IMG/VR virus record: IMGVR_UViG_3300028833_005988
Location: 16,004-80,003 of that record
DNA from: a virus
Lineage: Duplodnaviria > Caudoviricetes
DNA: 64,000 nt
Direction: 5' to 3' (one strand)
The translations under genes were made by a program, and so were the position numbers. Shown here piece after piece: positions 20,328 through 61,794 of the stretch. How positions within the stretch are numbered: position 1 is the stretch's first letter; each line of letters opens with the position of its first letter. The notes under the pieces were generated by a model, which was given only the letters and a program-made list of their open reading frames with translations, was not told the DNA's origin and did no database searches.

Positions 20328-20906
20328 ATGTCCAAGAAGAACACCGGCAACACCACCACCATGGAGAACACCGCTGTCACCACCAACACCACCACCAGCA
20401 ACAAAAAGGAGGATACCACTATGAAGAACACTACCACCACCAGCACCGCGAACAACAATACCAGCACCATGTCCGCCCAGGAGTTCAAGCAGAAGTCCTA
20501 TGATGCCTACCTGGCCTATGTCGCTTTCATTGAAGGCCAGAAGTCTATCTCCGAAACCATGGAAGCCCTGTCCCCGCTCATGTCCGCCTATGGCTTCACC
20601 CTGACCGTGGACAACCTGGCCAACCTGCTGACCGTCAAGATGACCGCCTTCGGTAAGGACAAGGGCGAGCAGGCCAAGAAGGTGAAGTCCATCTCTACCT
20701 TCCGGGCTTTCGTGAAGGGCGGCTGGCAGGATGTGGCTGCGGCTCCCGTACACTCCAACGCCGGCAAGAACCCCGCCGATGTGAAGCAGACCACCAAGGC
20801 CAAGGGCCCCACCAAGGCTGAACTGGAAGAAAAGAACGCCGCCCTGCTGGCTGAACTGGAAGCCCTCCGCGCCGCCGCTGCCGCTAAAGAAGCGAAGGCC
20901 GCCTGA
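20328..20906 (+). CDS. Hypothetical protein with Thr/Asn-rich N-terminus and Ala/Lys-rich helical C-terminus
   Basis: 192-aa ORF with strong C/G third-position codon bias; terminator follows. Confidence 0.8.
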   Translation: MSKKNTGNTTTMENTAVTTNTTTSNKKEDTTMKNTTTTSTANNNTSTMSAQEFKQKSYDAYLAYVAFIEGQKSISETMEALSPLMSAYGFTLTVDNLANLLTVKMTAFGKDKGEQAKKVKSISTFRAFVKGGWQDVAAAPVHSNAGKNPADVKQTTKAKGPTKAELEEKNAALLAELEALRAAAAAKEAKAA

Positions 20907-20925
20907 TTCCCTGCCCCTCTGTCCT

Positions 20926-20961
20926 GCGGCGGTTCTGCTATACTGTGGAACCGCCGCTTTT
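20926..20961 (+). terminator. Rho-independent terminator
   Basis: GCGGCGGTTC / GAACCGCCGC stem followed by TTTT. Confidence 0.75.
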
Positions 20962-20964
20962 CAA

Positions 20965-21023
20965 ACCGCCTGACGAGTCTTTGCAAATTAAGACGAAACA
21001 CCTGCGTCCGCAGGTGTCGCGGT
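20965..21023 (+). ncRNA. Type I hammerhead ribozyme
   Basis: Stem I ACCGC/GCGGT; core CTGACGA; stem II GTCTT/AAGAC; GAAA; stem III CACCTGCG/CGCAGGTG; GUC site, predicted cut after 21018. Confidence 0.9.
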
Positions 21024-21055
21024 ATCCCCATCGAAAAAGGAAAGGAGGTATCATC

Positions 21056-21244
21056 ATGAAGCGGGCTATCGCGATCCTTCTGGCCGTATGTATTGCGGCC
21101 TTCTGCGGCTTTGCCTTCACGATTCATTGGGCAATGTCGAACGTGGAGATATGCTGGAATCCATACGGGATATCCCTATATCTCTGCGGGCACGAGTGGG
21201 TACATTTAATTGATAGCGGAATTTCCGAAGTGGTTCAGGAATGA
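21056..21244 (+). CDS. Small membrane/secreted hypothetical protein
   Basis: RBS AAGGAGG; hydrophobic N-terminus. Confidence 0.6.
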   Translation: MKRAIAILLAVCIAAFCGFAFTIHWAMSNVEICWNPYGISLYLCGHEWVHLIDSGISEVVQE

Positions 21245-21353
21245 ATCTATGGCGGAAAATTGCGCTGTCTTTTTTATTTACCCAAATGTTTAGTAATACT
21301 AAGTATATTATTTAGTATTGCGGAAAATCTGCAAATTGGGAAGGAGAACACAC

Positions 21354-22823
21354 ATGGCACAGCGTATGCTCATCACGGTTCGCAACCGGGCAATTCAGGC
21401 CTATCTCAACGGAAAAAGGGAAATCCGTATTTTCGGCATCACCATCCAGATTCAGCACGCTCATACCAACCAGTACCAGGTTATTCTGCCTGACGGTTCG
21501 GAAATCTTCCGTATCGTGGATCAGGGCAACCGGAAGCTGCAAGTCTACACAGTGTAAGACAATTTTTTCCGCCATGCAAAAAACGGCGAAAACTGCATCT
21601 CTTGTATCTTGTATATAGAGGGTTTTTGAAGGGAGGGAACGCGGATGGGTTGCAAAGGCGGAAACCGGAAATATGACGATCTCCGGGACGGCATCCGCAA
21701 GCACATCCTGGTGAAGGTGGAAACAGACGGGAATTACCTGTCCTTCGCCACCTTTTCCCCGGAATGGGGAAGCCATGGACGCTTCCTGATTCAAGTGGAC
21801 AAGGTTCGGGAACTGGTGGAGGAGAAGGTGTACAACCTTTGTGATATGGATTGCGGAAATCATATCTACATTTGGAATCACAAGGGCATTCTGTACTTCA
21901 CCTTTGACTGGCTGTCTGAGTACGGAAATGGGACGCTCAAGGGCATTCGGCAGCACCTGGAACTGTCCGCGGAAAAGCTCATTTCCGTTCTGGTTACGGG
22001 GAAACCGCTTCATACCGTCTACCGGCCAGACAGCAGCCAAGCGCGTATTCTTTCCGAACGCGTGGTCAAAGTCATTCGGGAAATTTTGAAGGACAAATGG
22101 AAAAAGCGGGCTTTCTGCAAAGCCATGCGGGACTGCTTTCAATGGCGGGGCGATACGGTGTCCTTGTACCCGGACAGCAGATATTCCTTCTATTTCTGCA
22201 CATCCAGCGGCTTTCCCGGCAATGGCGGACTGATCCTGCATGAGGGAAGCGCCCGTGTGGGAAACCGGGAATATTCCAAGCTGTACTACAGCGTTCATAC
22301 CTGAAAGGGGGATCGGCATGGAAATCTCGTTTTACTGGGATGACCTGACGCCTGAAAAGCAGGCGGAAATCCTGAAAAAGCTGGGCGATAACCAGAACTG
22401 GGATGTAATCCCGTTTTGCACGCTGGAAATCGAGAATGACGATGAGGACGACTGACCGTCCGTGAAACACAATTCAGCATTCTGGAGGTGCGGAATCATG
22501 ATGTTCAGGAAAAACAAAATGCGGTCAAGCTCGAAATTGGCTTGCCCGACGGCTCACGCATCGTTGCTATGCTGAGCGGTTATGTGGAGCCTGGTGGGGA
22601 AGATTGCGGCTGGGCCGGTGTCAATGTGGACATGGTATCCACGGATGGCGCTCACTACATGCTGTGCAGTGCTGAATATGTGGAGGATGTTCGCAAGGTT
22701 CGAGTGTTCGGCAGCAGCGGCAGGATCAATGAACTGGAAGTAGGCAACTGTGCGGATCAGGCCATGCGGAAAAACAGGAAAACGACTTACAGAGCTGCCG
22801 GAATCCGCCTGGGCGTTGCATAG
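21354..22823 (+). other. Run of hypothetical CDSs: 21354-21557, 21645-22304, 22318-22455, 22488-22823
   Basis: Co-oriented ORFs, mostly with recognisable RBS; no family recognised. Confidence 0.6.
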
Positions 22824-22880
22824 GCGGATTCCTGCTAAAGAAGTCAGCATAACCTCGACAAGATTGGAAGAGGTACATCC

Positions 22881-23675: not shown

Positions 23676-23693
23676 CAAAGGAGGGCGTGAACC

Positions 23694-24932
23694 GTGGATT
23701 TTTTTGACGATAAGCTGAACCTGTTCTTCGACAAGGAAATGCTTCAGCGGACGGTCAACGCCTGCGTGGATAAGGGCATCGACCTGGCGGAAATCCGCTG
23801 GTTCACGCAGCCGGAACACCGCATCACTCTGGCCAAGCAAATGCTTGCGGGACAATACCATATCGCCCCGCCGCACATCATTCAGATTCCCAAGCGGGAT
23901 TCCACGGAAATGCGGAAAGTGTACTGCAACGAAGCCATGGATCGCTTCATCTGCGCACAGATTGGCAAGGTATATGAGCGGATGTACCATGACCGGATTC
24001 ATCCCTGCTGTGTTTCCTATCAGCACGGTATCGGCGTGGGAAAGATAGTGCGGGAAATATCCGCCTTTCTCGCTTCCCATCCCGGCATGAAAGGCCGGAA
24101 GTACGATATTCACCACTATTTCGATGAAATCAGCGAGGAAACACGGGATCAGGGATTGCGGGAACTGGACTCCGGTTCCTGCATTGACCGGGTCGTGTGG
24201 GAATACCTGCATGACGATCAGGTGATTGATGAGAATGGCGAATTGCAGCATGTTTATAAAGGCATCGCCCAGGGCTTTGCTGTCAGTCCCTTCCTAGCGA
24301 ATTACCTGCTCCGTGATGTGGATGAAGCCATCAGCAAGCTGGACGTTCTCTATTACCGGTATTCCGATGACATTCTGATCCTGGGCAGCGACGTGGAGAA
24401 AGCTGAAGCCATCCTCTTCTCAAAGCTGGCGGAGAAAGGGCTGACCATCAACCCCAAAAAGGTGACGGACATTGACGCGGATACCGCGTTCACCTTTCTG
24501 GGCTTCAAAATCCGTGGCGCGGAGATCACCTTTTCCAAAGATACGATCGACCGGCTGAAAAAGAGCATCCGCAGCCTGACCAAAACCAGGAAAGGCCAGC
24601 CCTTGAAAAGTGAAGCCGTTCTGCGGAAAGCGATCCGACAGATCAACCATGATCTGTATATGGCCTATTTGCTCAACGACCGGGAATTTGGCTGGGCGGA
24701 GTATATGTTCGGTACGGTCAATGTTCTGGAGAATGTGCGTATGCTGGATTTCTACATCAAAGATCATCTGCGGCACCTGTACACCGGAAAGTGGAATTCC
24801 TATGGGAACTACCAGAAGGTGCCCAATGATATGCTGCGGCGGTGCGGATATATCAGCATGGTGCATCTGTACAAGCTCTACAAAATCTCCAAATCCCTAT
24901 ACAGAAATGAGGTGAGGATGCAGTGCGCATGA
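23694..24932 (+). CDS. Reverse transcriptase (412 aa, no endonuclease or Cas1 fusion)
   Basis: IPKRD...DRFI, DIHHYFD, GIAQGFAVSPFLANYLL, YYRYSDDILI, GLTINPKK, FTFLGF. Confidence 0.95.
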   Translation: MDFFDDKLNLFFDKEMLQRTVNACVDKGIDLAEIRWFTQPEHRITLAKQMLAGQYHIAPPHIIQIPKRDSTEMRKVYCNEAMDRFICAQIGKVYERMYHDRIHPCCVSYQHGIGVGKIVREISAFLASHPGMKGRKYDIHHYFDEISEETRDQGLRELDSGSCIDRVVWEYLHDDQVIDENGELQHVYKGIAQGFAVSPFLANYLLRDVDEAISKLDVLYYRYSDDILILGSDVEKAEAILFSKLAEKGLTINPKKVTDIDADTAFTFLGFKIRGAEITFSKDTIDRLKKSIRSLTKTRKGQPLKSEAVLRKAIRQINHDLYMAYLLNDREFGWAEYMFGTVNVLENVRMLDFYIKDHLRHLYTGKWNSYGNYQKVPNDMLRRCGYISMVHLYKLYKISKSLYRNEVRMQCA

Positions 24933-26790
24933 AGTGACGTGCAAAATCAGTCTGGCCGATCAGGACGGCAGGGTTAAACCTCAAATCCGTCTTCTTCATC
25001 ACGCAGGCCAATTCCGCGAAGCGCTGCATGGCCAACGTGCCCAGAAGACCGATCATCGTAAAGCCGTACAGTCAAGACCCATCCCTGAATCCTGATCACT
25101 CCCTTTTATGGCGCTGCCAGCGCTTTGAGCAGCAGACAGGCACAATCACCGCGAGATACCGCCTCCTGAGGCCCATCTCATCTCGAAGCGGATGAGATGC
25201 CCCTCCTGAGGAGGTATCCCTTGATCCTAAAGTCATGAAGTAATGGCCCGGCTTGGAAGCTGCTCTAATAAATGAAGAAGGTAACGCCAGTTATCCCGGC
25301 GCAGGGAAACAGCGGTACGTCCGTACACCAATCATGCACGAGCTCCGGATCCTTGTCGTTCGACACGTCGTCAACGCGACGTTTCCTCCGGTCTCTCTTT
25401 CAGGATCCGGAGCTCATTCTTCTATCGTAAAGCTTCTGAAGCATTGCGCAAAAGGAACCGCTGCTGTTTTATGCATCCGGTACAGGAATGCCGCATCATG
25501 TCCGTATCCTTCACACAGCCGGCTTTCGATCCGCTGAGGCAGTGGATCGCGCAGACCGGCTTTACATCGTAAACCCATGAAGAAATGTACAAAGCGGAAA
25601 CGGTGCGGAAATCGCCCGGCGCAGGGCGGCAATGCAATATCCGCAAACATCAGCTTCTGAAATTCCGATCGACATCGCCAGCTCTGGTGCCCAGAACCTG
25701 ATCGGAAGCCTCCCTTTGGTTCTGGGCACATTCGCGGCGATGTCATCCGAATTCAGAACATCGTAAACACTTTCAGTTATGCGCAAGGCGGATGCGTATT
25801 GCCAGAATCACTCCAGCGCAGGAGCAGCAATGGAGCCGCTGATTTTCAATGAGCTCTTCTGCAGTACGTCGTCTTCTTCAGGGTTTCGAGCTGCCGCTCG
25901 GAGACCTCTCTTACAGCTCGAACCCCATGAAGCAACGACGTACTGCAGAAGAGTAATATCGTAAACCCTTGCAGTCATGCGCCAAACAGCGGAAAAATTG
26001 CTTCATTATATAGCGCAGGCGCGTGCGTATGCGACGCTATGCCCTTTTTTCAGCATGTCAGTGCGAGTCATTCGCTTCTGCTCAGTGCGCTCTGCGGAGG
26101 CCGCGTCACACACTGAGCTTTGCTCCGATTCACACTGCCCGCATCGTAAAACTGTGAAGAAAACGCGAACAGAGGGCCCGGCGTTGCTGTTCTTTTTTTC
26201 TCCGGCACAGGAGAATGCCGCCATGTCCGCGCCATCAGGCATCCTGCCTTCTGAAGCGCGCGTCACATGAGGAGGTGCCCAGGCCATCGCGAAGGAAACC
26301 TTCTTATAGTCTGGAGCACCTCCCAGTATCGCGCGCTCAGAAGGCAGGCTACATCGTAAACCTCTGAAGAAACGTGCAAGGCGGAAACGGCGGCAGCATC
26401 CCATCCGTACAGATGGCTTTTCCCCAGTTTCGAGCTTTATGCGGCATTCGGAGGCGCAAGCGCCTCCTGCTGACCGACGCCTGTATGCCGGCATCGAGCG
26501 ACTGGGATGACGGGCATCCCAGTCACCATTTTCCGTCATACAGGCTCCATCAAGCTCGCAACATCGTAAAGAGATGCAGTTCTGTACCGTGCAGGCAGGT
26601 GGATATATCAGATACACGTTTGCACAGACGATTTTGACAGCCGATCCCATTTCTTCAGTTCGGCAGCCGCTCCGGCCGTCGGCAGGCGCCTTTCCATTCC
26701 GGACACCTTCATTCCAGGCGCCTCGCCGTCGGCCGGATTGGCTGCCTACATCGTAAAGCGGTTGCAGTTATGTGCCAATCGGGATGGCTG
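24926..26790 (+). repeat. RT-associated non-coding array of structured units
   Basis: ATCGTAAA at 25055, 25424, 25566, 25760, 25958, 26143, 26353, 26563, 26750 and ATCCTAAA at 25224, each followed by a TGAAG/TGCAG-like element; spacing 142-210 nt; long unit-specific hairpins. Confidence 0.85.
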
Positions 26791-26809
26791 TTTCAAAGGA
26801 GGTATCGCC

Positions 26810-27367: not shown

Positions 27368-27416
27368 AAACAGAAGTATTCCAGTCAAACAAATGAGACA
27401 ATGAGGAGGAACACCC

Positions 27417-28310: not shown

Positions 28311-28367
28311 TGAATACATTGCTGCAGGGCTCTGCTTCGGCATCCCCGCAGCGAAAGGAGGGGTCAT

Positions 28368-31736: not shown

Positions 31737-31741
31737 GGAGG

Positions 31742-33280: not shown

Positions 33281-33731
33281 GCAAGCTCAGATGGACGTCA
33301 TGGCTTTACCCTGTTGATCAAGCTGTATTCTATAGAAGGTGGCTGAACCGAAGATGAGATTAAACAGATCATGCCCACCTTCAAATTCTATGATGAAATA
33401 AGAGAGCCGCTTCGAATTCATGAGATACTTGGGCAGAAAAAGTTAGCGATGGCTGGCAGGACGACGAAGATGGGAATCGCTACAAGGAAATTGAGTATCA
33501 GATGACCACTCTGAAAAATCTATCTGTGTTGGTTTATTCTACGCCTGATATAACCAGTGACACTACAGAACCTCTTTGGAAGGACTCCATTGTGTTGTTT
33601 TCCGATGATCCAGCCGATATGACTGATAAAAAACAATACAAGGAGACATCGGTTCACACAAGCCCATGTCTCCATATTTTAGCAGAAAATAATCAATGTA
33701 TAAATAAAGAAATATTGAATCTGCGCCTTGG

Positions 33732-34289
33732 TTAAAAATCCTGCTTTACGTTTGTTGATAATAATACTGATGCAAGACGAAAGTGCTTTTTTTTACTCAA
33801 TGGTCGACATTCAACAATTTGTACATAATCACCAATCCTTGCAACCTCATTTTCATCATGTACAAGATAGTTTTTTGATCTTTTAATTTGTTTATTATAC
33901 TTTGGATGGGTAAGGTAGTATCCGTTTTTCACCTTTATTGTCTTCTCCCCTGAAATATTTACAACAAGTCCTTCAAGCACTTTTCTCTTGTTTCTAATCT
34001 TTAAAGTAAACTCTGCTCCTGGAAGAGGAAGAGTGGGTACATGAATTATCACTGAATGAAAGGCAAGATAATCAATCCATGTTTTTACCATGCGATCCAG
34101 TTCATAATATTCATTTTGAGAAAGCCTATCATATTGATTATAAAAACTTACTGTGTTAAAAAAATTAGCTATTTCGGGAACCATTATCTTTTTTCTATCC
34201 TCGATGTTAAGGCTGACAAGCGATTTAGCCTTATGTAATAGACGTCTATGAATAAGGCTAAAATCTTTAAAACCCATAAAGCACCTCAC
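33732..34289 (-). CDS. rpsQ: Ribosomal protein uS17-like domain fused to a ~95-aa unknown N-terminal domain
   Basis: C-terminal RKVLEGLVV...KTIKV...HPKYNKQIKRSKNYLVHDENEVARIGDYVQIVECRPLSKKKHFRL; lies outside any ribosomal operon. Confidence 0.8.
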   Translation of the reverse strand: MRCFMGFKDFSLIHRRLLHKAKSLVSLNIEDRKKIMVPEIANFFNTVSFYNQYDRLSQNEYYELDRMVKTWIDYLAFHSVIIHVPTLPLPGAEFTLKIRNKRKVLEGLVVNISGEKTIKVKNGYYLTHPKYNKQIKRSKNYLVHDENEVARIGDYVQIVECRPLSKKKHFRLASVLLSTNVKQDF

Positions 34290-34996
34290 TTTACTCTTTG
34301 TTCTATTTCCGAAACAATACGAATATAAATATCCAATAAGGCCATTACAGCTCCATCAGAGTATGTCAACATATTGTCAACTGCATTCACATATAGTGGA
34401 CGATTTTCAACAATAAAGTGAACGCTTTTAGCATCCCACAAATTCTTTGTATTATACTCTTCAATTGTATCAAAAAATTCGCAAAATCTTTGATGGAGGC
34501 TTAAAGCGTTATCAAGTGCGTTATTTATTGTTCGACAATGCAAAGACAGTTCACTGAAAATCCCTCCTTTGCTATTTAGCTCTTCATAATCAGCTTTTGT
34601 AGCTTTTCTTCTTTCGGAAATGGTTTTAAGTGTGTCTGTTGCCGTCTCTAAACGTTGCTCTATATCTGTTAAAGCTGACATCATTGTCGGTTCCTGAAAT
34701 AATTGTTTTAAAGTACCAGGCGCAATGTTATCTTCAGGCTTTTGATGACCATTTCCGTCAGAAACAGTTTCATATAGTCTTAAAAATGGAGTGTGTAAAG
34801 AAGAATACACCATATGCAAATCTTTCCAGGCTTTAGCTGGATTTCTTATAAATATTAGAGATTGAAAAGTATTATTTATCTCCTGTATTTCCTTGCGATT
34901 TGCGGATACTATTCTTTTATTTACAATATCAATTGTCTGCAGGGAGAATCCTAATATTGATGCAACTGAACCAACAGCGTTAATGAGCCCATTCAT
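34286..34996 (-). CDS. Hypothetical helical protein in AT-rich insert
   Basis: 236-aa ORF with RBS AAGGAG; stop overlaps start of the S17-like gene. Confidence 0.75.
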   Translation of the reverse strand: MNGLINAVGSVASILGFSLQTIDIVNKRIVSANRKEIQEINNTFQSLIFIRNPAKAWKDLHMVYSSLHTPFLRLYETVSDGNGHQKPEDNIAPGTLKQLFQEPTMMSALTDIEQRLETATDTLKTISERRKATKADYEELNSKGGIFSELSLHCRTINNALDNALSLHQRFCEFFDTIEEYNTKNLWDAKSVHFIVENRPLYVNAVDNMLTYSDGAVMALLDIYIRIVSEIEQRVK

Positions 34997-47987: not shown

Positions 47988-48019
47988 GGAGATACCCCTT
48001 TCTATTGATCATTTGTTTA

Positions 48020-48478
48020 TTACCACAGTTCGATACTGCCGGTTTCTTCACCTTTGACCCAGTAGGCTTTGTTCTCGTCTACACGGATATAAATCTTATC
48101 CGCAGCCCCGATCTTGGCGATGATTTCTTCCGGTGTAATGGTTCCACCAAGTGGAGACTGGATAATGATTTCGGTTTTCGGCGATTGCGCGGGTGCGTTT
48201 TTTTCAGCCTTTGCCTTGCTTGTGCGCTTTGCTTTGGTCTTGGATTCCGCAGGCGCGTCAGCCTTTGGCGCCTTTGCCTTCTTTGCAGGCTTGAGAGCCA
48301 AATCCACGTTATAGACTTCCTTGATCTTTCCCAATACCTTTTCGCTCGGATTCACCCGGCCCGCTTCATAGGCGGTCACGGAGGCTGTGCTTACGCCAAT
48401 CGTTTTTGCGAAGGCAGCTTGAGACAGTTTCTGTGCGGTACGAAGTTCTTTAATTGTCGGAATCTTCTTCGGCATGAA
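48020..48478 (-). CDS. XRE-family repressor, divergent from the replication operon
   Basis: IKELRTAQKLSQAAFAKTIGVSTASVTAYEAG; Lys/Ala-rich linker. Confidence 0.88.
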   Translation of the reverse strand, partial: FMPKKIPTIKELRTAQKLSQAAFAKTIGVSTASVTAYEAGRVNPSEKVLGKIKEVYNVDLALKPAKKAKAPKADAPAESKTKAKRTSKAKAEKNAPAQSPKTEIIIQSPLGGTITPEEIIAKIGAADKIYIRVDENKAYWVKGEETGSIELW

Positions 48479-48796
48479 TGTCATCCTCCCTTTATTCTTT
48501 TGACTTCATTATACATAAAGCATTTAAGAATTACAAGGAAAATGTATTTCTTAATCAGTTGTTTGAGGGGGTATGGCATTTTTTTCGTATTGGATACATG
48601 AATAGCATAGTATACAGACGCTCTCACTGTGAAAAAAGTTCCCCATTGTTTCGTCCTTTCCGTCTCGTTATAATAATGCGCATCCGGCACAAAGAACGAG
48701 TGTTACTCACAAAATTATTTCTATTGGAGGAGCAAGTTTTGGCCAAAATGGTATCTCTTATATAATGAAAACCAAAATGAAAGGGAGGAATCGACA

Positions 48797-49831
48797 GTGG
48801 CTATTCAAATAGTCAAAGCAAAACGGCAGTTGGCGCGCCTCAAGATTGGAGTGGCTGGTAGTTCCGGCAGTGGAAAAACATAGAGCACGCTGCTCATGGG
48901 TTTCGGTTAGATTCAGGCAGTACATCCTAGCATCTCCAATGAAGCGGCTTGGGAGAAAATCTGCGTTATCGACACGGAAAACGGTTCTGGTAGCCTGTAT
49001 GTTGGCACTGTGGTAAGCAGTACCCGTATCGGGGAGTACCTGACCATCGCTCTGGACGCTCCGTTCAGCGCGGCCCGATATCTAGAGGCTATTGAAGCGG
49101 CAGAGAATGCTGGGGTGGAATTTTTGATTATTGATTCCCTGTCACACGCCTGGTCCGGTGAGGGCGGTCTGCTGGATATGCAAGCGAACATCGCCAAACG
49201 CAGCGGCAACGGCTATACCGCCTGGCGGGATGTAACTCCGCTGCATAATAAGCTGGTGGACAAGATCCTGCAATGTCCCATGCACGTGGCGGCCACCCTG
49301 CGCACCAAGACGGAATATGTGATCGAGGACAACGGACAGGGTAAAAAAGCACCCCGCAAGGTGGGTATGGCCCCCATTTTCAGAGAAGGGCTAGAATATG
49401 AGTTCAGCGTGTTCTTTGAACTGGCTCAGGATCATTCCGCGGCAGCCACGAAGGATCGTACCGGCCTGTTTGATGGTCAATACTTCGTGATCACCCCAGA
49501 CACTGGCGCGAAAATCGCGGGCTGGCTGGGCGACGCGGAAAAGAACGCAGCCGCATCGGCAGCGGAAAGGCCGCAGGTGAAGCAACAAAGCCTGGAGCCT
49601 TCTGAACCGTCTCCTGAACCGCCTTCTTCGGATGGAGAGGATACCCAGACCCTGGCTGAAAAGGTAGACATGGTGATGAAAGCCTGCTGCACCGATATTA
49701 CTCAGGAGGAAAGAGAGAAGATCGCCCAGCGGATACGGGCAATTACCGGAGGTACAGCAAACTATCGGGCGATTACTGACAAAAGGATTCTTCAAGCAAT
49801 CTACGATGAATTCAAGGAGGAAACAGTATGA
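48797..49831 (+). CDS. AAA_24-like phage ATPase; 2 in-frame TAG (48881, 48908)
   Basis: Walker A GSSGSGKT*S, VIDTENGS, IIDSLSHAW; frame continuous through both TAGs. Confidence 0.88.
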
Positions 49832-50193
49832 GTGTAAATAAGCTGACCGCAGTTGGACGATTGACGGCAGATCCTGTTTTATCCCAATTCGGTGATGCTT
49901 CCTGCGCGACCTTTACATAGGCATCGGATACACGCACCAAGGATGTGAACGGAGATAATATCACAAATTTCTATCGTTGCAATACCTGGCGCAGAATGTC
50001 TGAAGTAGCCATGCAGTATTTACATAAGGGTGACAAAATTACTGTGGTCGGCGACTTGACCATTCGGCAGTATAAAGATAAAAACGGTATGGATCGAACT
50101 GCTGTACAGATCAATGTCACAGATTTAGAATTGCCAGCCCATAAAACACAGACTACCAATGGCAGTTCTCAAGAAGATGATTTGCCTATTTAA
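49828..50193 (+). CDS. ssb: Single-stranded DNA-binding protein; 1 in-frame TAG (49918)
   Basis: VGRLTADP, ATFT*A, YLHKGDKITVVGDL, acidic tail EDDLPI. Confidence 0.92.
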
Positions 50194-50206
50194 GGGGGAC
50201 AAACAG

Positions 50207-50761
50207 ATGAAGCTCACTGCAGAACAAGAAACTCAATTCTTGAATGAGCATGAGAAAAAGATCTGTGATTTTGTCAATCGTTACCAGCGAAAAGCCGGAA
50301 AAAGGTATCCTGACAATACAGAAGATCTTCTACAGGAGGCCAGATAGGCGCTGTTGCTTCTGCTGCGAAATGCAGATAGTTTAGCGGAAGCAGAGCATTA
50401 CTACATCCATGTGACGCATGCTTTATATGAGTATGTGCGCAGAATGGCGGCAGTTAAAATCCCACAAAAGAAGTTTAAGATGGAAATCCGCAATATATTT
50501 CTTTTCTCCCTGGATGTATTCGAATTTGATGCAACATCGTCTTCTTTTGAAGATATGATTATCGGCAATATAGATTATGAACGCTTTTTGAGTTGCTTAT
50601 TACCTTTGGACGCAAAGATGCTGTCTATGAGGATGAAAGGTAGTTCATAGAAAAAAATTGCCAATGCTGTGGGATTATGCGAAAGTCAGGTATGTCGCCG
50701 TATTCATCGTTTAGGCAATCAGTATCGCTGCTTTATGGAAGGCTGTTGCTGTGCAGGCTGA
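50207..50761 (+). CDS. Sigma-70-like factor; 2 in-frame TAG (50345, 50648)
   Basis: EDLLQEAR*ALL (region 2); KGSS*KKIANAVGLCESQV (region 4 HTH). Confidence 0.75.
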
Positions 50762-52541
50762 CATCCTTCGGTTTGCCGCCGTGCACTTGGCTCCTTACCG
50801 GGTGCGCGGGGATGAACTCATCCCGGATTACTGCCCCTTCTGTCACGGCGGCGACAGCGGCGACCGATACACCTTCGCCCTGAACCTGACGGACGGCGTG
50901 TATGTGTGCAAACGGGGCGGATGCGGCGTCAAAGGCCGGTATGAAGAACTGGCAGCCCATTTTGGCGAGTGGGCGGAGTTTCTCCGCCCCGCCGCCTCCG
51001 CCAAAAGGCAGTTCATTCTGCCGGAAGTGGAAATAAAGCCCCTGACCACGGAAATAATTCAGTATTTTGAAAAGCGGAGAATCACCAAAGAAACCTTGGA
51101 CGCGTTTCACATCGGCGCGGACGAAAAAGGAAACATCGTTTTCCCCTTCTTCCGGGACAGCACATAGGAATATGTGAAATACCGGGCGCCGCGCACACCC
51201 CAGCCCAAGGAGAAAAAGGAATGGCAATGTTCCAACACACGCCCCATCCTGTTCGGGATGGATCTATGTTCCTTTTCCCACCCCCTGATCATCACAGAAG
51301 GCCAGATCGACACGCTCTCTCTTTATGAAGCAGGCGTCTGTAATGCCGTGTCCGTTCCAAGCGGCTGCACCAATCTGGATTGGATCGACCATTGCTGGGA
51401 CTGGCTGGAGAAGTTCCAAACGATCATTCTGTTCGGGGACAGCGATGAACCGGGCAAAAAAATGGTGCGTGAGGTGGTTCGGCGGCTGGATGAAGCACGG
51501 TGTATGGTGGTAGAGGAATACCCAGACAAGCCGGACGGCACACCCTGCAAGGACGCCAACGAAATCCTGTTCTATTATGGGCCGGAAACGCTTCAGGAGA
51601 CCTTGGACGCCGCTCAGCCGGTGCCTGTCAAGGGAATCATTCAGTAGTCGGATGTGGTTCCTTACGACCCTACCACCGTTCCACGAATCAAAACCATGAT
51701 CCCGGCGCTGGATGAATAGATCGGCGGATAGGCGGAAGGGGCAATGACGGTGTTCACCGGCAAGCCCGGCCAGGGCAAGTCAACGGTCACGGGACAGCTG
51801 CTTCTGGCTGCTATCGAGCAGGGCTATTCCGTCTGCGCTTACAGTGGCGAGCTGACCAAGGAAAAATTTTAGGAGTGGATTAGTCTCCAGGCAGCAGGTT
51901 CGGAGTATATCGGCCTTCGCTATGATCCCGTGCGCGGCATCAAAATCCCGACCGTGCCGTATGCCGTACAAGAGCGATAGACGGATTACTATCGGGATAA
52001 GTTTTATCTATTCGACAACCAGGAAATCTTTGAGGTCAACCAATCGGAAAGCATCCTGAAGGTTTTCCAGATGGCGGCGCGGAGATACGGCTGCAAGCTG
52101 TTCCTGGCGGATAACCTGATGACCGCCCTGTCCGATTCCGACGAGGAAACCAAGGCCCAGGGCAAGTTTGCCAACGCGCTCAAAAAGTTCGCCACCCGGT
52201 ATCATGTGCATGTGCTGCTGGTGGCCCATCCCCGCAAGGTGAAGCAGGGAGAAAAGCTTGGCCAGGACGACATCGGCGGCAGCAGCGCCACCATCCGTTA
52301 GGCGGACAGCGCCATCGTGGTGGAGCGGCCCAACCTGCGGGTGCTGAAAAACCGGGAGGGCGGGATATGCAGGCTGATCGAGTGCTGCTACTGCCCGGAC
52401 AGTCGCAGGATCTATCAGGCAGACAAGGGCGATAAGAACCGTTTTTCCTGGAATAAGGACGGTATTGTGCCGCCGAATCCCCGGGCGGACAGTTTGCCGG
52501 AGTATTCAGTACAGATGGCAGAGGTGATACAACCGTTTTAA
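50751..52541 (+). CDS. T7 gp4/Twinkle-like primase-helicase; 7 in-frame TAG (51165, 51645, 51717, 51729, 51870, 51978, 52299)
   Basis: Zn finger CPFC...CKRGGC; TOPRIM ITEGQIDTLS, DSDEPG; Walker A GKPGQGKST; ADNLM, VAHPRK, DIGGS. Confidence 0.9.
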
Positions 52542-53326
52542 TGGAGGGAAGCAAGTGCATCATTCCAAATGATATGAAATGGTCGTTCAGCAAATAGCAG
52601 TTGTTTTCTCAATGCCCCTTGGCTTTCAAGCTGCAGTATATCGACCATGTTTCCCAGGAGCAGAACAGCTACGCGGAGTACGGTACGCATTGCCACAGCC
52701 TGCTGGAGCGCTGGGCCAAAGGGGAACTCTTGTCCTTTGAACTGGCGGACAGGTATGAAGCGGAGTACGACGAAGCGGTCAGGCATTACTTCCCGCCCTT
52801 TCCCCAGGGCCTGGCCGGAAAATACTTTGAGGAAGGGAAGCAGTATTTTCTGTCCTTCGACGGCTTCGGAGAAAACATGGAAATCCTGTCCGTGGAGGAA
52901 AAGTTTGAACTGGATATCCGGGGAAATCCATTTGTGGGCATCGCTGATCTGGTGCTGCGGGACAAGCAGGATGGCGGCATTATCGTCATCGACCACAAAT
53001 CCAAGTCCATGCAGTCTATGAAAAAGGAACTGTTCGCCAATACTCGGCAATTGTACACCTATGCCGCGTATGTGAAGGAACGGTTCGGAGAATACCCGGC
53101 TATGCTGCGGTTCAATATGTTCCGCTACGGCACCTTCATCGATGAGCCCTTTTCCATGGAGCGATACCAGGAAACCATGGACTGGATCGATACGACCATC
53201 CAGGCCATCAAGAACGAAAAGGATTGGCGTGTGTCCACCTCCGGCTATTTCTGCCGCTTCATCTGCTCCACCCGCCTGCATTGTCCTGTGGGGGAAGAAA
53301 TCATTCATTCCGAAATAAAGGAGTAA
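52541..53326 (+). CDS. PD-(D/E)XK nuclease; 1 in-frame TAG (52595)
   Basis: WSFSK*QLFSQCP, GTHCHSLLE, GIADL, VIDHKS, QLYTYA, CRFICS. Confidence 0.88.
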
Positions 53327-53332
53327 TCCGCT

Positions 53333-56300
53333 ATGACGCTTTAGGAAAAGGGTATTCCTTATGTGAATTATCACCGGCATTCCTGTTACAGCAACGTCAT
53401 GCTGACAGACAGCGTAGTCACCAATGAAGACTACGCCAAGCGGGCGGTAGAATTGGGGCATACCATTCTTTCCTCCTGCGAGCACGGCACCCAAGGCAAC
53501 TACTGGCAATGCTCCGAACTGGCAAAGAAGTACGATCTGCACTGGCGGTATGTGAGCGAAGCCTATTTTGTAAAGGACAGGCGTGAAAAGGATAACGCCA
53601 ACTGCCATATTATCCTGGCTGCCAAGACGAGAAAGGGCATCGGCGATCTGAATTTCGCCCTGTCCGAAGCCAACATTAGCGGATATTACTATCGGCCCCG
53701 GGTCGATCTGGAATTACTGCTGTCCCTGGATTCGCAGGACGTTTTTGTGACCACGGCCTGCATCGCCGGGGTGTTCAAATACGGCTGGGAGGAGGCGGAA
53801 CGCCTGATCCTCCGCTTCGCAAAGCACTTTCGGGGCAGCTTCATGTAGGAAGTACAGTATCACGACACGGATAAGCAGCGGGAGGTCAACCAATTCCTGC
53901 TGGGCTTGTACAGAAAGCACGGGATTCCCCTCATCATGGGAACCGACAGCCATTATATCCATCCGCGGGACGCAGAACTTCGGCAGCAGCGGTTGGAAGC
54001 CAACCACATTCTGTATGAGGACGAAGGCGGCTGGTATATGGATTATCCCTCCGGAGCAGAAGCGTTTCAGCGCTTTCAGCGGCAGGGCGTTCTTTCCGAC
54101 GCGCAAATCCGGGAGGCCATGGAGAATACCTGCATCTTTGAATCCTTTGAGGATGTGGAATTCGACAAGAGCAAAAAGCTGCCCACCATCTATCCTGAGC
54201 TGACACAGGAGGAACGGAACCATAAGTATCTCGATCTGGTGAACGCCGCCTTTGAGCAGCAGACTGCTGGCATGACGGAGGAAGAAAAAAGTGTCCGTGC
54301 GGAAGGCGTGAAATACGAAACGGATGTGGTCACCTCCACCGGCATGAGCGATTATTTCCTGTTGGATCACGAGCTGGTGTGCCGCGCCGTAAAAAAAGGC
54401 GGCATCATCACCAAAACGGGACGCGGCAGCGCGCCCAGCTACTATACCAACTCCCTGCTGGGCCTGTCCTCCATTGACCGCTTCGCCATCCCTGTGGAAA
54501 TGTTCCCGGATCGGTTCATTTCGGCGGACAGAATCGTATCCGGCAGCCTGCCGGACATCGACATGAACGTAGCCAACCGGGAAGCCTTTGAGGAAGCCCA
54601 GGCGGAAGTACTGGGCGAATGGAGAAGCGCGCCTATGGTGGCTTTCGGTACCCTGAAACGGCTCTCCGCCTGGAAAATGTACTGCCGGGCCTCCAATCTT
54701 TCCTTCGATGTCGCCAACAGCATCGGGGATAAACTGAAAGCCTATGAAACAGCGGTCAGATACGCGGAGGACGGTGAGGAAATTGCGCTTTCCGACTACA
54801 TCCCAGAAGAATATCGGGAATAGGTCGCCGCCAGCGAGCAGTACATGGGTGTGATCGATTCCATTTCCCCACATCCCTGCGCCTATCTGCTCTGCCGGGA
54901 AGATATTCGTCGGGAAATCGGGATCATCCGCATCAACAGCAAGGGAGCCAAGAAAAAGACTGTCTACGCCGCCTTTATCGACGGCGCAACGGCGGAACAG
55001 TTCGGATATCTAAAGAATGACCTGCTCCTGGTGGAAGTTGTTAAAACCAACCATGAGGCATTTAAGCGCATTGGGACGGAGCAGCCGGATGTGAACGAGC
55101 TTTTGCGGCTCACAGCCCAGGATAAGGAGACGTGGCGTATGTACGCGGAAGGATTGACCATGGGGCTGAATCAGGTGGAACAGCCGAAAACACGGGAAAA
55201 GGTGATGCAGTACAAACCCAGGAACATCACCGAGCTGGCGTCCTTTGTGGCAGCGGTACGCCCTGCGTTCAAATCCATGCTGCCCATCTTTCTGGCCCGG
55301 AGGCATTTTGACTATGGCATCCCCGCTTTTGACGCTTTGATCCAAACAAGAGAGATGTCGTCCAGCTTCATTCTGTTCCAGGAGCAACTGATGAAAACGC
55401 TTCAGCATGCCGGGTTTTCATCCCCTGAATCCTACGCGGCCATCAAGGCGATTGGGAAAAAACATCCGGAGAAGGTACTGCCGCTGAAGCAGCGTTTTCT
55501 GGAAAAGTTCTCAGAGAAAAGTGATCCTGATGCGGCAGAAAAGGTCTGGAAGATCATTGAAGACGCGACTTCGTATGGGTTTAACAGTTCTCATGCTGTC
55601 TGCGTCGCTCTGGACAGTCTGTACGGCGCTTGGCTGAAAGCTCATCATCCTTTGGAATACTACACCACCCTTCTCACCGGCTATGCCGCCAAGGGAGACA
55701 AAGACCGCATCTCTCTTGCCAAGGAAGAAATGCGGAAGGGCTTCGGCATCCGCGTGGTCCCCTGCAAATTCCGGCAGGACAATCGGGACTTCTATATTGA
55801 CTACGAAGAACGAACGATCTCTGACGCATAGACGTCGGTAAAGCACATAAGCCGCAAGGCTGCGGAAGCGCTCTACGCTATGCGGGACGGATTCTATGCC
55901 TGCTTTACCGATCTGCTGTATGATATGGAGCTTCATCCTGCCTTGGATTCCCAGGTGGTCGAAATCCTGATCCGGCTGGACTATTTTCGGGAGTTCGGTT
56001 CCAACGGAAAGCTATAGAAGTTATTAAGGGAGTTCCGGGAAGGGGAAGCCCACTTTTCCAAAACCCATATTCCCAGGACCCAGGAGGCGCGGCTGCGCGT
56101 TCTTCGCGGGATCGAGAGAAGTCTGCCGGAGGAAACCATTCCGCCTTATGAGCAGGCGCGTTTTGAAATCGACCACTGCGGTACGCCGCTCACCTTGTTT
56201 CCGGCATTAAAGTTTGAATACGCCGTTATAGATGTGGATGATCGGTACAGCCCCAAGCTGAAGCTGTGCAGCCTCTCCACTGGACATACGGGCGTGATGA

Positions 56301-56461
56301 AGCTGAAAAAGGCGCTGTTTCAGCAAAAACCCATTGAAGAAGGCGCCATCCTCCGCCTGATCGCCTGGAACCGAAAACCGGCGTATCAGTTTCTCGACGG
56401 GAAAGCCAAGCCAAGATCCGACATGTTCGACCTGTGGATCACCGATTATGAACTGATCTGA
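53333..56461 (+). CDS. dnaE: DNA polymerase III alpha subunit; 5 in-frame TAG (53342, 53846, 54821, 55829, 56015)
   Basis: PHP YHRHS, CEHG, GTDSHY; GRGSA, PDIDM, HPCAY, LKNDLL, YGFNSSHA. Start 53333 has RBS AAGGAG (alternative GTG 53363). Confidence 0.92.
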
Positions 56462-56497
56462 TGATCCGTCCGGCCAGCGTTTTTCTGGCCGGTACAG

Positions 56498-56582
56498 GGG
56501 AGCATGGCGGAACTGGCAGACGCGGAGGTCTCTAAAACCTTTGCTTTACGGCGTGCGGGTTCAAATCCCGCTGCTCCCACCA
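56498..56582 (+). tRNA. tRNA-Leu-type body with CUA anticodon (reads UAG)
   Basis: Acceptor GGGAGCA/TGCTCCC, discriminator A and encoded CCA; D-arm GCGGAACTGGCAGACGC; anticodon arm GAGGT-CTCTAAA-ACCTT (CTA at 56532-56534); extended variable arm; T-arm GCGGG-TTCAAAT-CCCGC. Confidence 0.93.
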
Positions 56583-56623
56583 TCGCGCTTCATGCGCAGA
56601 AAAGCTTGTAAAGGAGGCGGATC

Positions 56624-56938
56624 ATGAATACGATTCCCTTACGATTCATCCATGCCGGTTTCGGCCATGTGGTATGCGCCAATCGGGTTTCCATGGTACT
56701 CAATCCCCAAACCGCCAGCGCCCGGCGATAGATTAGGGCCGCAAAAGAGGCAAAACCCTCCAGATTTGTGGATATGACCTTTGGCCGAGCCACAAAGAGC
56801 GTCTTACTGTTGGACGACGGAGCCGTGATTGGTTGCGGATTGACCTACCGCACCATAATGTCGCGGCTGAACGGCGATGCCCCATTGGAAGCGGAAGCAG
56901 AACCGATCCTGGGCACAGAAGCGGAGAATGCGGAATGA
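56624..56938 (+). CDS. RemA/DUF370-like protein; 1 in-frame TAG (56729)
   Basis: GFGHVVCANRV...SARR*IRAAKE...DMTFGRATKSVLLLDDGAVI. Confidence 0.75.
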
Positions 56939-57573
56939 AAATCATTCAGCAGTCCGCCCGTATCCTCACCCCGGAGGATGGAATGCAGGTGCTGCGGCAG
57001 ATTGAGCAGGCTGGCCGCAACTGTTACCGTTCTGAAAGAAAGATCACAGAGGACAGCGCGCCGCGTTTTGTGGCCGCACTGTTGAAACGAGGCCACCTTT
57101 CGCCTGTGGAGTTTGCCGATATGAGCGTGGAGTAGGTCACTTCCCGGGATGTGATGGCGGAACTCACCCGGCATCGATTGGCCAGCTTCTGCATTGAGAG
57201 CCAGCGGTATGTAAACATGAATGGAGAAATCGCCTTCATCCAGCCGATATTTTATCGGGAAGGTTCTTGGGCCTCCGGGCTCTGGTGGAAGTGCATGAAG
57301 GATGCAGAAAAAATCTACCATGATATGCTGGCACACGGCATCAAGCCCGAGGACGCCAGGAAGGTATAGCCCAATTCCACCGCTGTCCGCATCATCATGA
57401 AGGCCAACCTGCGGGAGTGGCTGCACATCTTCACGCTCCGAACCGATCCGGCAGCTTATCCTGAAATGCGGACATAGATGGCGCTACTGCTGCGGCAGGC
57501 CAGGGAAAGGATCCCCTTGATATTTGACGGAATAACAATCCCGGACGGAAAGGACGAAAACCATGAGAATTGA
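56935..57573 (+). CDS. thyX: Flavin-dependent thymidylate synthase; 3 in-frame TAG (57133, 57367, 57475)
   Basis: GHLSPVEF, ELTRHRLASFCIESQRY (RHRx7SxR), ARKV*PN, NLREWLH, EMR. Confidence 0.92.
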
Positions 57574-59440
57574 TAAGTATACCGATCATAACCGGCATTA
57601 GAGCTTCATTGACCGCTACGGTAGGGCGTCTAACGCTGCAACCAGCAGCGAAACGGATCCCAATGCCAATGTGGAAAGCAAGAACATCGCCACCATGGAA
57701 ACGGAAATCTATAAGGCGGACGCCATCGCCATCAATCGTCTGGGCATGTACCGGAAACTGCAGGAGATGTACGGCACCAACACCGCGGAAGAATATTTGC
57801 GGCAGCTGGAAGAGCATGAAATCTACCGGCATGACGAAGTGGGCATTTTGGGCAAACCCTACTGTGCCAGCGTGACGCTCTATCCCTTCCTTTTCTATGG
57901 AAACACCTGCATCGGCGGCACCAGCGAAGCGCCCAAGAATCTCTCTTCCTTCTGCGGCGCGTTCATCAACCTGGTATTCGCTTAGGCCAGCCAGTTCTGC
58001 GGGGCCATTTCCACGCCGGAGTTCCTCTGCTACATGGATTATTTCATCCGCAAAGAGTATGGCGACGACTATTACCAACGTTCAGATGAGGTCGTAGATT
58101 TATCCACTCGCCACCGCACCCTTGATAAGGTGATTACCGACGCCTTTGAGCAGGTGGTGTACTCCATCAATCAGCCTGCCGCCGCCCGCGGGAATCAGTC
58201 CTGCTTCTGGAATATCGCCTATTTTGACCAGCCGTACTTCCATGGGATGTTTGAAGATTTTGTGTTCCCGGACGGTACGAAGATGCGCTGGGACTCTGTC
58301 TCCTGGCTGCAAAAGCGTTTCATGCGCTGGTTCAATCAGGAACGGAAGCGCAAGCTGCTGACTTTCCCGGTGGAAACGGTGAACCTGCTGGACAACGGCG
58401 AGGATTTCGTAGATCAGGAATGGGCGGACTTTGTAGCAAAGATGTGGGCGGAGGGACACAGCTTTTTCGTGTACCGCTCTGATTCGGTGGATTCGTTAGC
58501 ATCCTGCTGTCGTCTTAGAAATGAAATGCAGGATAACACCTTCTCCTACACGTTAGGCGCCGGCGGAGTCGCCACAGGCAGCAAATGCGTCATGTCCATC
58601 AACGTGAACCGCCTAGTGCAAAATGCCGTTTGGGACAATGGCTTGGAGGATGTGCGTGAAGCGATGTCGGAGATGGTGGAGAAGGTTCATAGGTATTTGC
58701 TGGCTTTCAATGCGATCCTGAAGGAACGTCAGGCCGCCGGGTTGCTGCCGGTCTACGACGCGGGTTTCGTCTCCCCGGAAAAACAGTACCTGACCATTGG
58801 TGTGAATGGCTTTATCGAAGGCGCTGAAGCGCTGGGGATCGAGATCGACGCGGACAATCCACAGTATATTGCCTATGCCGAAGCGGTGTTGCAGCCGATC
58901 TACGAAGCAAACCGAAAGGACCGGCAGGAGGGGATCATGTGGAACACGGAAATGGTACCCGCGGAATCCTTGGGCGTAAAGAATGCTGCTTGGGATAAGG
59001 CGGACAAGCTGTTTGTTCCGCGAGACTGCTACAACTGTTATTTCTTCCGGGTAGAGGATCCCAAGGTCAATGTGCTGGATAAATTAAAGCTTCACGGACG
59101 CGCCTTTACCAAGTACCTGGACGGCGGCTCGGCCTGCCACATCAATCTGGATGAGCATTTGACCAAGGAACAGTACGTCCTGCTGCTGAAAGCCGCTGTT
59201 CGCACCGGCTGTAATTACCTGACCTTCAACATTCCCAACACGCTCTGCAAAAAGTGCGGGTATATCAGCAAGCACCGCTTGGATGAATGCCCCAAATGCC
59301 ACAGCCGGAGCCTGGATTACGCCACGCGGGTCATTGGGTATCTGAAGCTGGTGTCCCGGTTTGCGGAAGCGAGGCAGGAGGAAGAACATCAGCGGTACTA
59401 CGCAAGCAGCCTGGAGGGCGCCCATGGGCAAGGTGATTAA
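57563..59440 (+). CDS. nrdD: Anaerobic ribonucleoside-triphosphate reductase; 2 in-frame TAG (57599, 57983)
   Basis: PYCASVT, EMVPAESLG, YLDGGSACH, CKKC...CPKC, glycyl-radical loop TRVIGYL. Confidence 0.93.
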
Positions 59441-59621
59441 GAACCCGGATGAGGTCTTTTATAAGAACCTCAAGCGGCGCATCAAGCAAAACAACGGCTA
59501 TTGCCCCAACAAGCCGCGCCACGTCCCGGAAAACAAATGCCCGTGTCAGGCGTTCCGGGAGGGGAAGAGCTGCGACTGCGGGCAGTACATCGAATAGCCG
59601 GAGGATGTGACGGTATGCTGA
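59424..59621 (+). CDS. Ferredoxin-thioredoxin reductase catalytic subunit-like small protein (ends 59597 if TAG is a stop)
   Basis: GYCP...KCPC...CDCG motif. Confidence 0.6.
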
Positions 59622-59860
59622 TCTGTACGGAATGCGGGCGGACATTTGAACGGCCCCAGGAGGCTGTAGAACAGCATGGGCTGGACACGCCGCCCTACGA
59701 AAAAATCAGCATGTGTCCCTTCTGCGGCGGAGTGAGTCTGCGCAACGCATATCCCTGCTCCATTTGCGGCGGTTGGATCACCGGCAGCCACATCATCACG
59801 CTGGACGGGCAGCGCATCTGCGATGGCTGCTATATCCGCTATGAGGGGCCGGATGACTGA
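59615..59860 (+). CDS. Cys-rich Zn-finger hypothetical protein
   Basis: Four CxxC pairs (CTEC, CPFC, CSIC, CDGC). Confidence 0.65.
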   Translation: MLICTECGRTFERPQEAVEQHGLDTPPYEKISMCPFCGGVSLRNAYPCSICGGWITGSHIITLDGQRICDGCYIRYEGPDD

Positions 59861-60341
59861 AACGCCCCTGCGGTACATGGAATACGCCGTGACGCTGGCG
59901 GAGGCGCCGAAGGAGGTCAGCCTGACCATCGCTGTTTCCAACTGCGTCTTCCGCTGCTCCGGCTGCCATTCGCCCTATTTGTGGGAGGACAAGGGAGAAC
60001 TGCTGCTGCCGGCCCTGCCGGGACTGATTCGCAGGTATAAGGGGCTTATCTCCTGCGTGTGCTTCATGGGCGAAGGCCAGAATCCATCGGAATAGCGGCA
60101 GGCGCTGACGACAGTGCGGGAACACGGCTTGAAAACCTGCCTGTACAGCGGCTGCGACAGCATTCAGCCGTTTGTGCCGCTGCTTTCGCTGCTGGATTAC
60201 CTGAAAATCGGTCACTATGATGAAAAGATGGGCGGGCTGGACAGCGGGACGACAAATCAGCGGTTTTACCGCGTGGAAAATGGACAACTGATCGACGAAA
60301 CCGAGCAATTTCAGAGGAGGAAAGAGGAACATGACGCCTGA
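59853..60341 (+). CDS. nrdG: Anaerobic RNR activating enzyme; 1 in-frame TAG (60093)
   Basis: CVFRCSGCHS radical-SAM motif, FMGE, LYSG, LKIGHY, TTNQRFY. Confidence 0.9.
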
Positions 60342-60978
60342 CGAATACAAAGCGAAATACGGAGACACGGTCATCATGGGTATCGAGGCCAAATGGGTGG
60401 ACGGGCTATAGGTGGAGGGATACAATCCCAAAATCCTGGAGCCGGACGAGGATGGAAACGAGTACTGTGCGCTGCTGGAAGTGATTGAACAGCATTTGAT
60501 CAGTATGCCGCGCTGGAAAGCGGAAACCGATCTCACCTTCAAGCAGGTCATTCCCTATGTGATCGTGGAGCACCGTCCCACCGGACACATTTACATGACC
60601 ACCCGGATCGGCGGGGATGATCGGCTGAAAGGGCAGCACAGCATTGGCCTTGGCGGGCACATGGATGAGGACGAAAGGATTCTGGATACCCTTTACCGGG
60701 AACTGGAAGAAGAAGTGGGACTTCACCGGGACGACATCGCCGATATTTCGCTCTGCGGTTTTCTGTCCAGCACCATGACGGAGGTGGACAGCGTTCATTT
60801 AGGCCTGATCTACCATATCACCACGAACCGGGAGGATATTTCCTGTCTGGAAAAAGACAAGCTGATGGGCGACTGGTTCACGGTGGAGCAGTTACAGGAA
60901 GCCAGAAAAGCGGGCCACATGGAATCCTGGAGTACGATTTGCTTTGACAGCCTGCTGAGAGGGGAGGCGACCGAATAA
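60331..60978 (+). CDS. NUDIX-family phosphoesterase; 1 in-frame TAG (60409)
   Basis: KQVIPY, SIGLGGHM, RELEEEVG, VHLGL, MESWS. Confidence 0.85.
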
Positions 60979-61298
60979 TGCCCATCATCACCGGCGTTCA
61001 GCCCGATGCGCCTACCGTGGTCAACGAAAGAGGCGGCGCACAGTCCGCCACACCCTATGCCTTTCACTTCCTGCCGCCCAACGCCATGTTTGCCGCGGCG
61101 GAAACGGCCAAATACGGCGCGGAAAAGTATCACGAGTCTCTTCAGGATCGGAACTACAAGAAAATCCCGACCGAGGAACATGTGAACCACGCTATCCAGC
61201 ACCTGTACGCTTATTTGGCCGGAGATCAGACAGACGATCATCTGGCTCACGCCATCCTGCGGGCCATGTTCGCCTATGAAACGGCGTATGAGCAATAA
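60978..61298 (+). CDS. dATP/dGTP diphosphohydrolase-like (DUF5664) protein
   Basis: KYGAEKY...NY...HAIQHL...DHLAHA. Confidence 0.75.
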   Translation: MPIITGVQPDAPTVVNERGGAQSATPYAFHFLPPNAMFAAAETAKYGAEKYHESLQDRNYKKIPTEEHVNHAIQHLYAYLAGDQTDDHLAHAILRAMFAYETAYEQ

Positions 61299-61794
61299 AT
61301 TGCAAAAATCATCAAAATCTCTCCGCCTCCTCTGCGCCGATCTCTCCTTGCGCTGTCCCGGTTTTGCCGTCCTGCGGTATGAGAGCGGGAAAATCACCGT
61401 GGAAAGGCTGTGCCACCTGAACCATCGCGAGCAGAATTGCTGTCATGGCGAAATTTTGGCGGCTATCTATGATATGATCACGGAGCTTTCCGCTGATGTG
61501 GCCGTATTCGTGCGGGAAAAGGGCTTCTCCCGATTCCCGCACGAAACCCAGGTTCTTTTCAAGGTGGTAGGTATCGTTGACCTGGCCGCGTGGCGGCAGT
61601 GCAAAACGCAGTTTGAGGAAATCGCGCCGACCACCGTGAAAAAACTGCTGACCGGATCGGGGAAAGCCAGCAAGGAGGAGGTTGCCGCCGCATAGGAGCA
61701 GTACGTGGGAAAACAGGATTACGCCACCAATGACGAGAGCGACGCTGTTGCCGTGGGGGTGGCGTGGCTACGGTCACATAGATATATTGAATGA
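61288..61794 (+). CDS. ruvC: RuvC-like Holliday junction resolvase; 1 in-frame TAG (61693)
   Basis: ADLS, VRE, VKKLLTGSGKASKEEV; catalytic DESDAVAV lies after the TAG. Confidence 0.88.

Follow-up and report, generated by a model that had tools for sequence, protein, structure and literature searches.

TAG read as leucine across the lytic genes of a large temperate phage of gut Clostridia, with a possible role as a translational gate

Stop-codon recoding in phages was surveyed by Borges et al. (10.1101/2021.08.26.457843), who found virion genes recoded in all clades, recoding of replication genes that was variable and mostly present in the Lak phages, and TAG-free integrases in the Garnet and Topaz prophages, for which a lysis-lysogeny switch was proposed. 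Where the code of the phage differed from that of its host, only TAG = Gln and TGA = Trp were reported in that work, whose named clades are Sapphire, Jade, Agate, Topaz, Garnet and Amethyst and which gives no assignment to Leu. Here we describe IMG/VR record IMGVR_UViG_3300028833_005988, a provirus-classed virus record of 80,003 bases (~69% complete), in which comparative sequence evidence supports well a reading of TAG as leucine in the recoded genes. The 64-kb stretch analyzed, hereafter the window, corresponds to bases 16,004-80,003 of the record; the record reaches 16 kb upstream of window base 1, and this upstream part was read too. The modules of the record, in left-to-right order, are a virion module (minus strand), a low-GC cargo block, a block of mainly small plus-strand genes, an operon for replication and nucleotide metabolism, and a large serine recombinase. 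The code is partitioned between a lytic programme (replication, two sigma-like genes, packaging, capsid and tail) and the early, integrase and cargo genes. Garnet and Topaz share with this phage a prophage state in a standard-code host, a TAG-free integrase, recoded virion genes, a suppressor tRNA and a proposed switch. The present phage differs from them in that TAG appears to specify Leu and not Gln, in its larger genome (~115 kb by CheckV estimate compared with 22-34 kb), and in having a long TAG-free early block, TAGs biased toward the 5' ends of genes and a TAG-bearing leader on its DnaE-type polymerase.

The replication operon (48797-61794) contains 28 sense TAGs in 13 of its 15 genes, amounting to 7.4% of Leu positions. 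The virion and packaging module lies outside the window, on the minus strand of contig G000 at 849-14907 (locus L016), and ends ~1.1 kb before window base 1. It comprises genes for a sigma-like protein, the large terminase (TerL), portal, a putative capsid protein, head-tail proteins and a tail tube, and 40 sense TAGs are distributed over 17 of its 18 genes (8 in TerL, 6 in portal). Its TAG share of Leu positions (10.0%) is not significantly different from that of the replication genes (Fisher p = 0.25). In contrast, TAG occurs internally at none of the 694 Leu positions in the 39 genes of the early block (20328-48475); the frequency in the recoded modules would predict ~61 (P ~2e-28). These genes terminate in TGA (22), TAA (16) or TAG (1). 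A preliminary description of this DNA had reported that left-block open reading frames (ORFs) lack internal TAG and nearly all end in TAA or TGA, and that within the window every sense TAG lies to the right of an XRE-family gene; both statements agree with these counts. It had also limited recoding to replication, which the upstream virion module refutes: per-gene TAG counts over the record uphold the split from the early block but not a replication-only spread. The contrast it drew with described phages, in which recoding is biased toward late genes, is likewise lost, since late genes are recoded here too and Borges et al. report replication recoding in Lak.

The same partition was observed in relatives. 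Early-block homologs in G002 and G003 were likewise without TAG, at ~270 and 607 Leu positions, respectively. Early genes common to the window and G002 are as divergent as DnaE (reverse transcriptase (RT) 72%, DnaE 73%) yet TAG-free, which argues that the partition is old. In G002 all three blocks lie on one contig, with TAG in replication and virion genes and none in early genes, and in G008 a TAG-bearing TerL is linked to the replication module; a chimeric contig is ruled out by the linkage of the same modules in these two genomes. The query used did not recover TerL from five metagenome-assembled genomes (MAGs) that hold the replication module, a result that is uninformative because the bins are incomplete. 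The large serine recombinase at the right end (62029-63606, plus strand) has no internal TAG and uses TAG as its terminal stop, and the integrases of six relatives are also TAG-free. The cargo block (647-18653), with a transposase, two group II intron fragments and small regulators, is in standard code with no internal TAG, a count that rests on approximate gene starts.

Alignments and tRNA features both point to leucine as the meaning of TAG. Among full-length homologs, Leu stood opposite TAG columns in 165 of 232 cells for TerL and 405 of 748 cells for the primase-helicase; most single TAG columns were dominated by Leu, several of them at 96-100%. In loci with DnaE of at least 72% identity, the relatives' own TAGs mostly aligned with Leu in the window. 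The suppressor tRNA with a CUA anticodon (56498-56582) lies 36 nt past dnaE on the same strand, among the replication genes where it had already been placed; it is 85 nt long, with a Leu-type D-arm, a long variable arm, A73 and an encoded CCA. A CUA tRNA also follows dnaE in 15 related loci, and in G002 it is found ~4 kb further down the module. Bacterial leucyl-tRNA synthetase (LeuRS) largely ignores the anticodon, so that charging by the LeuRS of the host would be the simple reading. No match to release factor 1 (RF1) or a class I synthetase family was found in three partial virus records. The tRNA is labeled tRNA-Pyl by ARAGORN; pyrrolysine was rejected given its 85-nt length, long variable arm and Leu-type D-arm, and no pyl-like gene occurs among annotated neighbors. 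Taken with the TAG-free integrase, the in-frame stops of one type aligned to residues, the phage's own suppressor tRNA and the recoded virion genes agree with a stop-recoded phage, and a standard-code host is indicated through the Clostridia MAGs of relatives.

In a quick DnaE tree, which left out 11 near-duplicate loci and L078 and shows clustering rather than a dated origin, loci with recoded replication genes formed one group with a support of 100. Relatives below ~61% identity had few or no TAGs in replication genes. Among distant relatives, L041 (60% TerL identity) has a cluster of 24 tRNAs at 3021-7718 that includes a 92-nt CUA tRNA, while its three Leu tRNAs are short-variable-armed; its TAGs were opposite Leu in 19 of 32 cases, and the database stores this locus with TAG = Q. 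L039 (5790-5863) and L042 (6641-6717), whose TerL identity is 57-62%, carry CUA tRNAs with short arms, of which one is Gln-like and the other resembles short phage Leu tRNAs, together with very few TAGs; these possibly represent intermediate or separate recoding states. Leu-type CUA tRNAs were also present in two virus contigs not retrieved as close relatives (L048, 484-566; L049, 7241-7325), which suggests that TAG = Leu may be more widespread.

Within genes, TAG is enriched toward the start. Of the 68 TAGs, 26 fall in the first 50 codons where 12.3 would be expected, and none of 20,000 shuffles reached this number; other Leu codons lacked this bias. This bias was repeated on distinct TAG sites in relatives (32 of 86, p = 7e-6; 15 of 39, p = 0.005). 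An origin in AT-rich 5' ends was rejected, as TTA, TTG and CTA have no significant bias. Genes with at least one TAG are in excess (30 of 33 vs. 25.5 expected, p = 0.012), with the same direction in nine relatives (p 0.007-0.36). In the first gene of the operon, an AAA_24 ATPase (48797-49831, plus strand; TAG at codons 29 and 38), the first TAG falls at codon 12-34 in every recoded relative covered. The DnaE-type polymerase (53333-56461, plus strand) has TAG at codons 4, 172, 497, 833 and 895, and the TAG at codon 4, previously described from the ATG at 53333 supported by a ribosome-binding site (RBS), was confirmed. This codon belongs to an N-terminal leader ahead of the PHP domain whose sequence is unconserved and falls into four dissimilar types, and in which a TAG is nevertheless kept in 30 of 32 related loci; the leader in the window is shortened yet retains it. 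In TAG-free relatives (45-51% identity) the leader is missing and DnaE starts at the PHP domain. A DnaE start downstream of the TAG was rejected, as L003 offers no start codon in the interval from the TAG to the metal-binding motif.

A purine follows TAG in 79% of cases, compared with 54% for Leu codons; the difference has p = 3e-5 here and p = 0.035 across relatives. In E. coli a purine after TAG favors suppression, and the context observed here fits a continuing competition with RF1. Decoding was rejected as the reason for the missing C before TAG, which is explained by genome-wide CTAG avoidance; CTAG is depleted ~3-4-fold in all modules of the record. As regards a TTG-to-TAG origin, TTG was not clearly enriched among relatives at the positions of TAG (11% vs. 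8%).

With moderate confidence, we propose that the TAG = Leu code acts as a translational gate on the whole lytic programme of the dormant phage. The phage CUA tRNA, built on a tRNA-Leu body, would be charged by host LeuRS and compete with host RF1. Genes that would have to work ahead of the tRNA or in its absence (early block, repressor, integrase and cargo) avoid TAG; nearly all replication, sigma-like, packaging, capsid and tail genes carry at least one, often near the start. While the operon under control of the XRE regulator is silent or leaky, ribosomes would stop early and yield short peptides only; strong transcription of the operon would allow the co-transcribed tRNA to accumulate and full-length lytic proteins to be made. 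Co-transcription of the tRNA and repression in the lysogen are themselves inferred, and the TAGs in both sigma-like genes could couple late transcription to the tRNA. A stronger version, in which the clade uses TAG = Leu as a selected commitment lock, the DnaE leader is mainly an amber carrier and no replication or virion protein would appear until the phage tRNA outcompetes RF1, is offered more tentatively and falls somewhat short of probable. A translational gate on a dormant element had been proposed in the preliminary description; that part is plausible and has gained support from the 5' bias, the conserved DnaE-leader TAG and the TAG-free integrases and early genes of relatives, while its restriction to replication does not stand.

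Several observations count against the gate. The tRNA lies within the putative operon transcript, 7.7 kb below the candidate promoter, so leaky transcription that reaches dnaE should make some tRNA, and a tight lock would then need a threshold, polarity or a second promoter. A scan for promoters and terminators gave counts not above shuffles, and before the tRNA there was no terminator or conserved promoter, only a variable hairpin. Positive feedback via the tRNA, as suggested earlier, is possible but unsupported: the tRNA needs no translation and lies in the same putative transcript. Two short operon genes (within 56624-61794) carry no TAG, the operon sigma-like gene is TAG-free across the aligned part in two relatives, and the DnaE-leader TAG is absent in two. 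Furthermore, the related loci are not independent samples, and their kinship means that the leader count of 30 of 32 overstates independence. With leaky synthesis of the tRNA, the gate would amount to a threshold or delay governed by the level of tRNA relative to RF1, and having several TAGs in a gene and many genes in a pathway would make it steeper.

The competing account that deserves most attention is constraint without a gate, in which TAG drifted in as a seventh Leu codon in genes whose expression follows the appearance of the tRNA, and early genes are unable to hold it. The 5' bias would then reflect the purging of TAGs late in genes, where incomplete suppression makes them wasteful of translation or a source of harmful truncated proteins. 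This account covers the partition, the similar rates in both modules and the purine context, and yields a 5' bias through purifying selection alone; the turnover of TAG sites between lineages (86 distinct sites in replication genes) agrees with it. However, constraint explains poorly why a TAG is kept in the fast-evolving DnaE leader or why genes with at least one TAG are in excess, and we consider it rather unlikely. Gating of replication only, in a phage with only replication recoded and thus unlike known recoded phages, is true to the 64-kb window taken alone, but the virion module of the same record and the recurrence of its linkage in G002 and G008 make it highly improbable.

A reading of TAG as Gln (code 15), or an ambiguous reading, is what databases assume. 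One TAG, at codon 374 of the primase-helicase, does fall in a conserved Gln column and three others fall in variable columns, all of which weigh against leucine; in the distant relative L039 the CUA tRNA is short and its body resembles the Gln type, and one relative is entered with TAG = Q in public gene calls. However, L001, L002 and L006 carry a true Leu at the Gln column, and the Gln residues entered by databases land on conserved Leu columns, the same gene calls elsewhere cutting the TerL of relatives at TAG. With Leu dominating the TAG columns and a class II tRNA with Leu features, the locus does not conform to code 15, and glutamine appears very unlikely. In-frame stops within a provirus might also be nonsense mutations in the decayed genes of a dead prophage, or sequencing errors. 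We give this next to no weight, as the breaks in replication and virion genes are all TAG (68, with no TAA or TGA), the matching tRNA is conserved and TAG positions are common to genomes up to ~28% divergent in protein sequence.

Relatives with close replication operons were found in rumen and gut Clostridia MAGs, where the operon leads into an integrase, tRNA genes of the host and host genes in standard code. These flanking genes are uninterrupted when translated with table 11, and TAG serves as the stop in some of them. Integration beside host tRNA genes and standard-code genes in these MAGs indicates a temperate phage of a standard-code host, and the phage is, with its host placed via the MAGs of relatives, a large temperate phage of gut Clostridia whose virion module is SPbeta-like. 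The operon-end integrase is exchangeable among relatives L003, L004, L005, L008, L009 and L046; it measures ~330-740 aa, resembles the tyrosine or the serine type, and in several cases adjoins host tRNA genes. In the window, the terminal TAG of the serine recombinase is followed by two more in-frame TAGs and then TAA (63604-63630), and suppression would append 8 residues.

Beyond Garnet and Topaz, Lak megaphages and crAss-like code-15 phages resemble this phage in their recoded late genes, and Lak in mostly recoded replication genes too; they differ in their Bacteroidetes hosts and TAG = Gln, and crAss-like replication genes are in standard code. The phage phAss-1 (OQ749652; PMC10607447) is also a TAG-recoded siphovirus (136 kb) with a predicted Clostridia host, DnaE and suppressor tRNAs, but its TerL is 23% identical, its DnaE frame is without TAG and its TAG is reported as Gln (PMC10607447); placement in the proposed genus Phassvirus was rejected on this TerL identity. 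The large temperate SPbeta- and c-st-like siphoviruses share a DnaE polymerase, nucleotide metabolism genes and a terminal recombinase, with TerL 29% identical to c-st and 26% to phi3T, and a 60%-identical relative carries the YonB, YomX and YomU families. They use the standard code and the similarity is distant, a resemblance and not genus membership; membership in Spbetavirus was rejected on the 26% TerL identity to phi3T and the occurrence of relatives in Clostridia MAGs, not Bacillus. TAG also means Leu in green-algal mitochondria (NCBI tables 16 and 22), a shared codon meaning in a whole-organelle reassignment without partition. The proposed control of a set of genes through a single Leu tRNA has a parallel in Streptomyces bldA, which reads UUA, a rare sense codon and not a stop.

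The remaining genes of the replication operon are all on the plus strand. A sigma-A-like promoter candidate lies upstream (48739-48766), a consensus match of a kind whose count is not above shuffles. After the ATPase follow SSB (49828-50193; TAG codon 31), the sigma-factor-like gene (50207-50761; PHROG 1740, E 9e-7; TAG codons 47 and 148), the primase-helicase (50751-52541; 7 TAGs) and a PD-(D/E)XK nuclease (52541-53326; TAG codon 19). Beyond dnaE and the tRNA, the segment 56624-61794 encodes a RemA-like protein, ThyX, NrdD, two small proteins, NrdG, NUDIX, a dGTP diphosphohydrolase and RuvC, with 10 TAGs.

At the code boundary, divergent from this operon, lies the XRE-family regulator (48020-48475, minus strand), a candidate repressor. 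The early block it closes also includes RT, ArdC, DUF2958, DUF4241, Gp88, a HipA-like kinase with a helix-turn-helix partner, two proteins of 721 and 808 aa without assigned function, a tyrosine recombinase, a flavin reductase and HU. The sole TAG stop in this block terminates ORF 22488-22823 four codons ahead of a TAA; this ORF is probably frameshifted, and its RBS-supported ATG sits in a different frame near an A run. At 23694-26770 a stand-alone RT is followed by a non-coding array of approximately ten units of 140-210 nt, each with a short common motif, ATCGTAAA, and its own long hairpin; in G002 and G003, too, the motif array comes after the RT. An AT-rich insert of two genes (33732-34996, minus strand) includes one that ends in a ribosomal protein S17 domain (Pfam E 6e-26). 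Within the cargo block, two group II intron D1-D4 matches lie on opposite strands at 7881-8466.

The architecture and the idea of a switch are already known, and replication recoding has been published for Lak. The replication-only gating claimed as novel in the preliminary description is not real. Neither a phage TAG = Leu nor a DnaE-leader TAG was found in the literature searched, in which subscription journals were mostly missing and only TAG = Gln was reported; TAG = Leu thus adds a codon meaning not reported in that phage literature. Because public gene callers fragment these genes or insert Gln, the clade is mis-annotated. The system makes the question of regulation versus drift in phage recoding testable, with the DnaE-leader TAG as a single-codon handle, and related prophages reside in identifiable Clostridia genomes.

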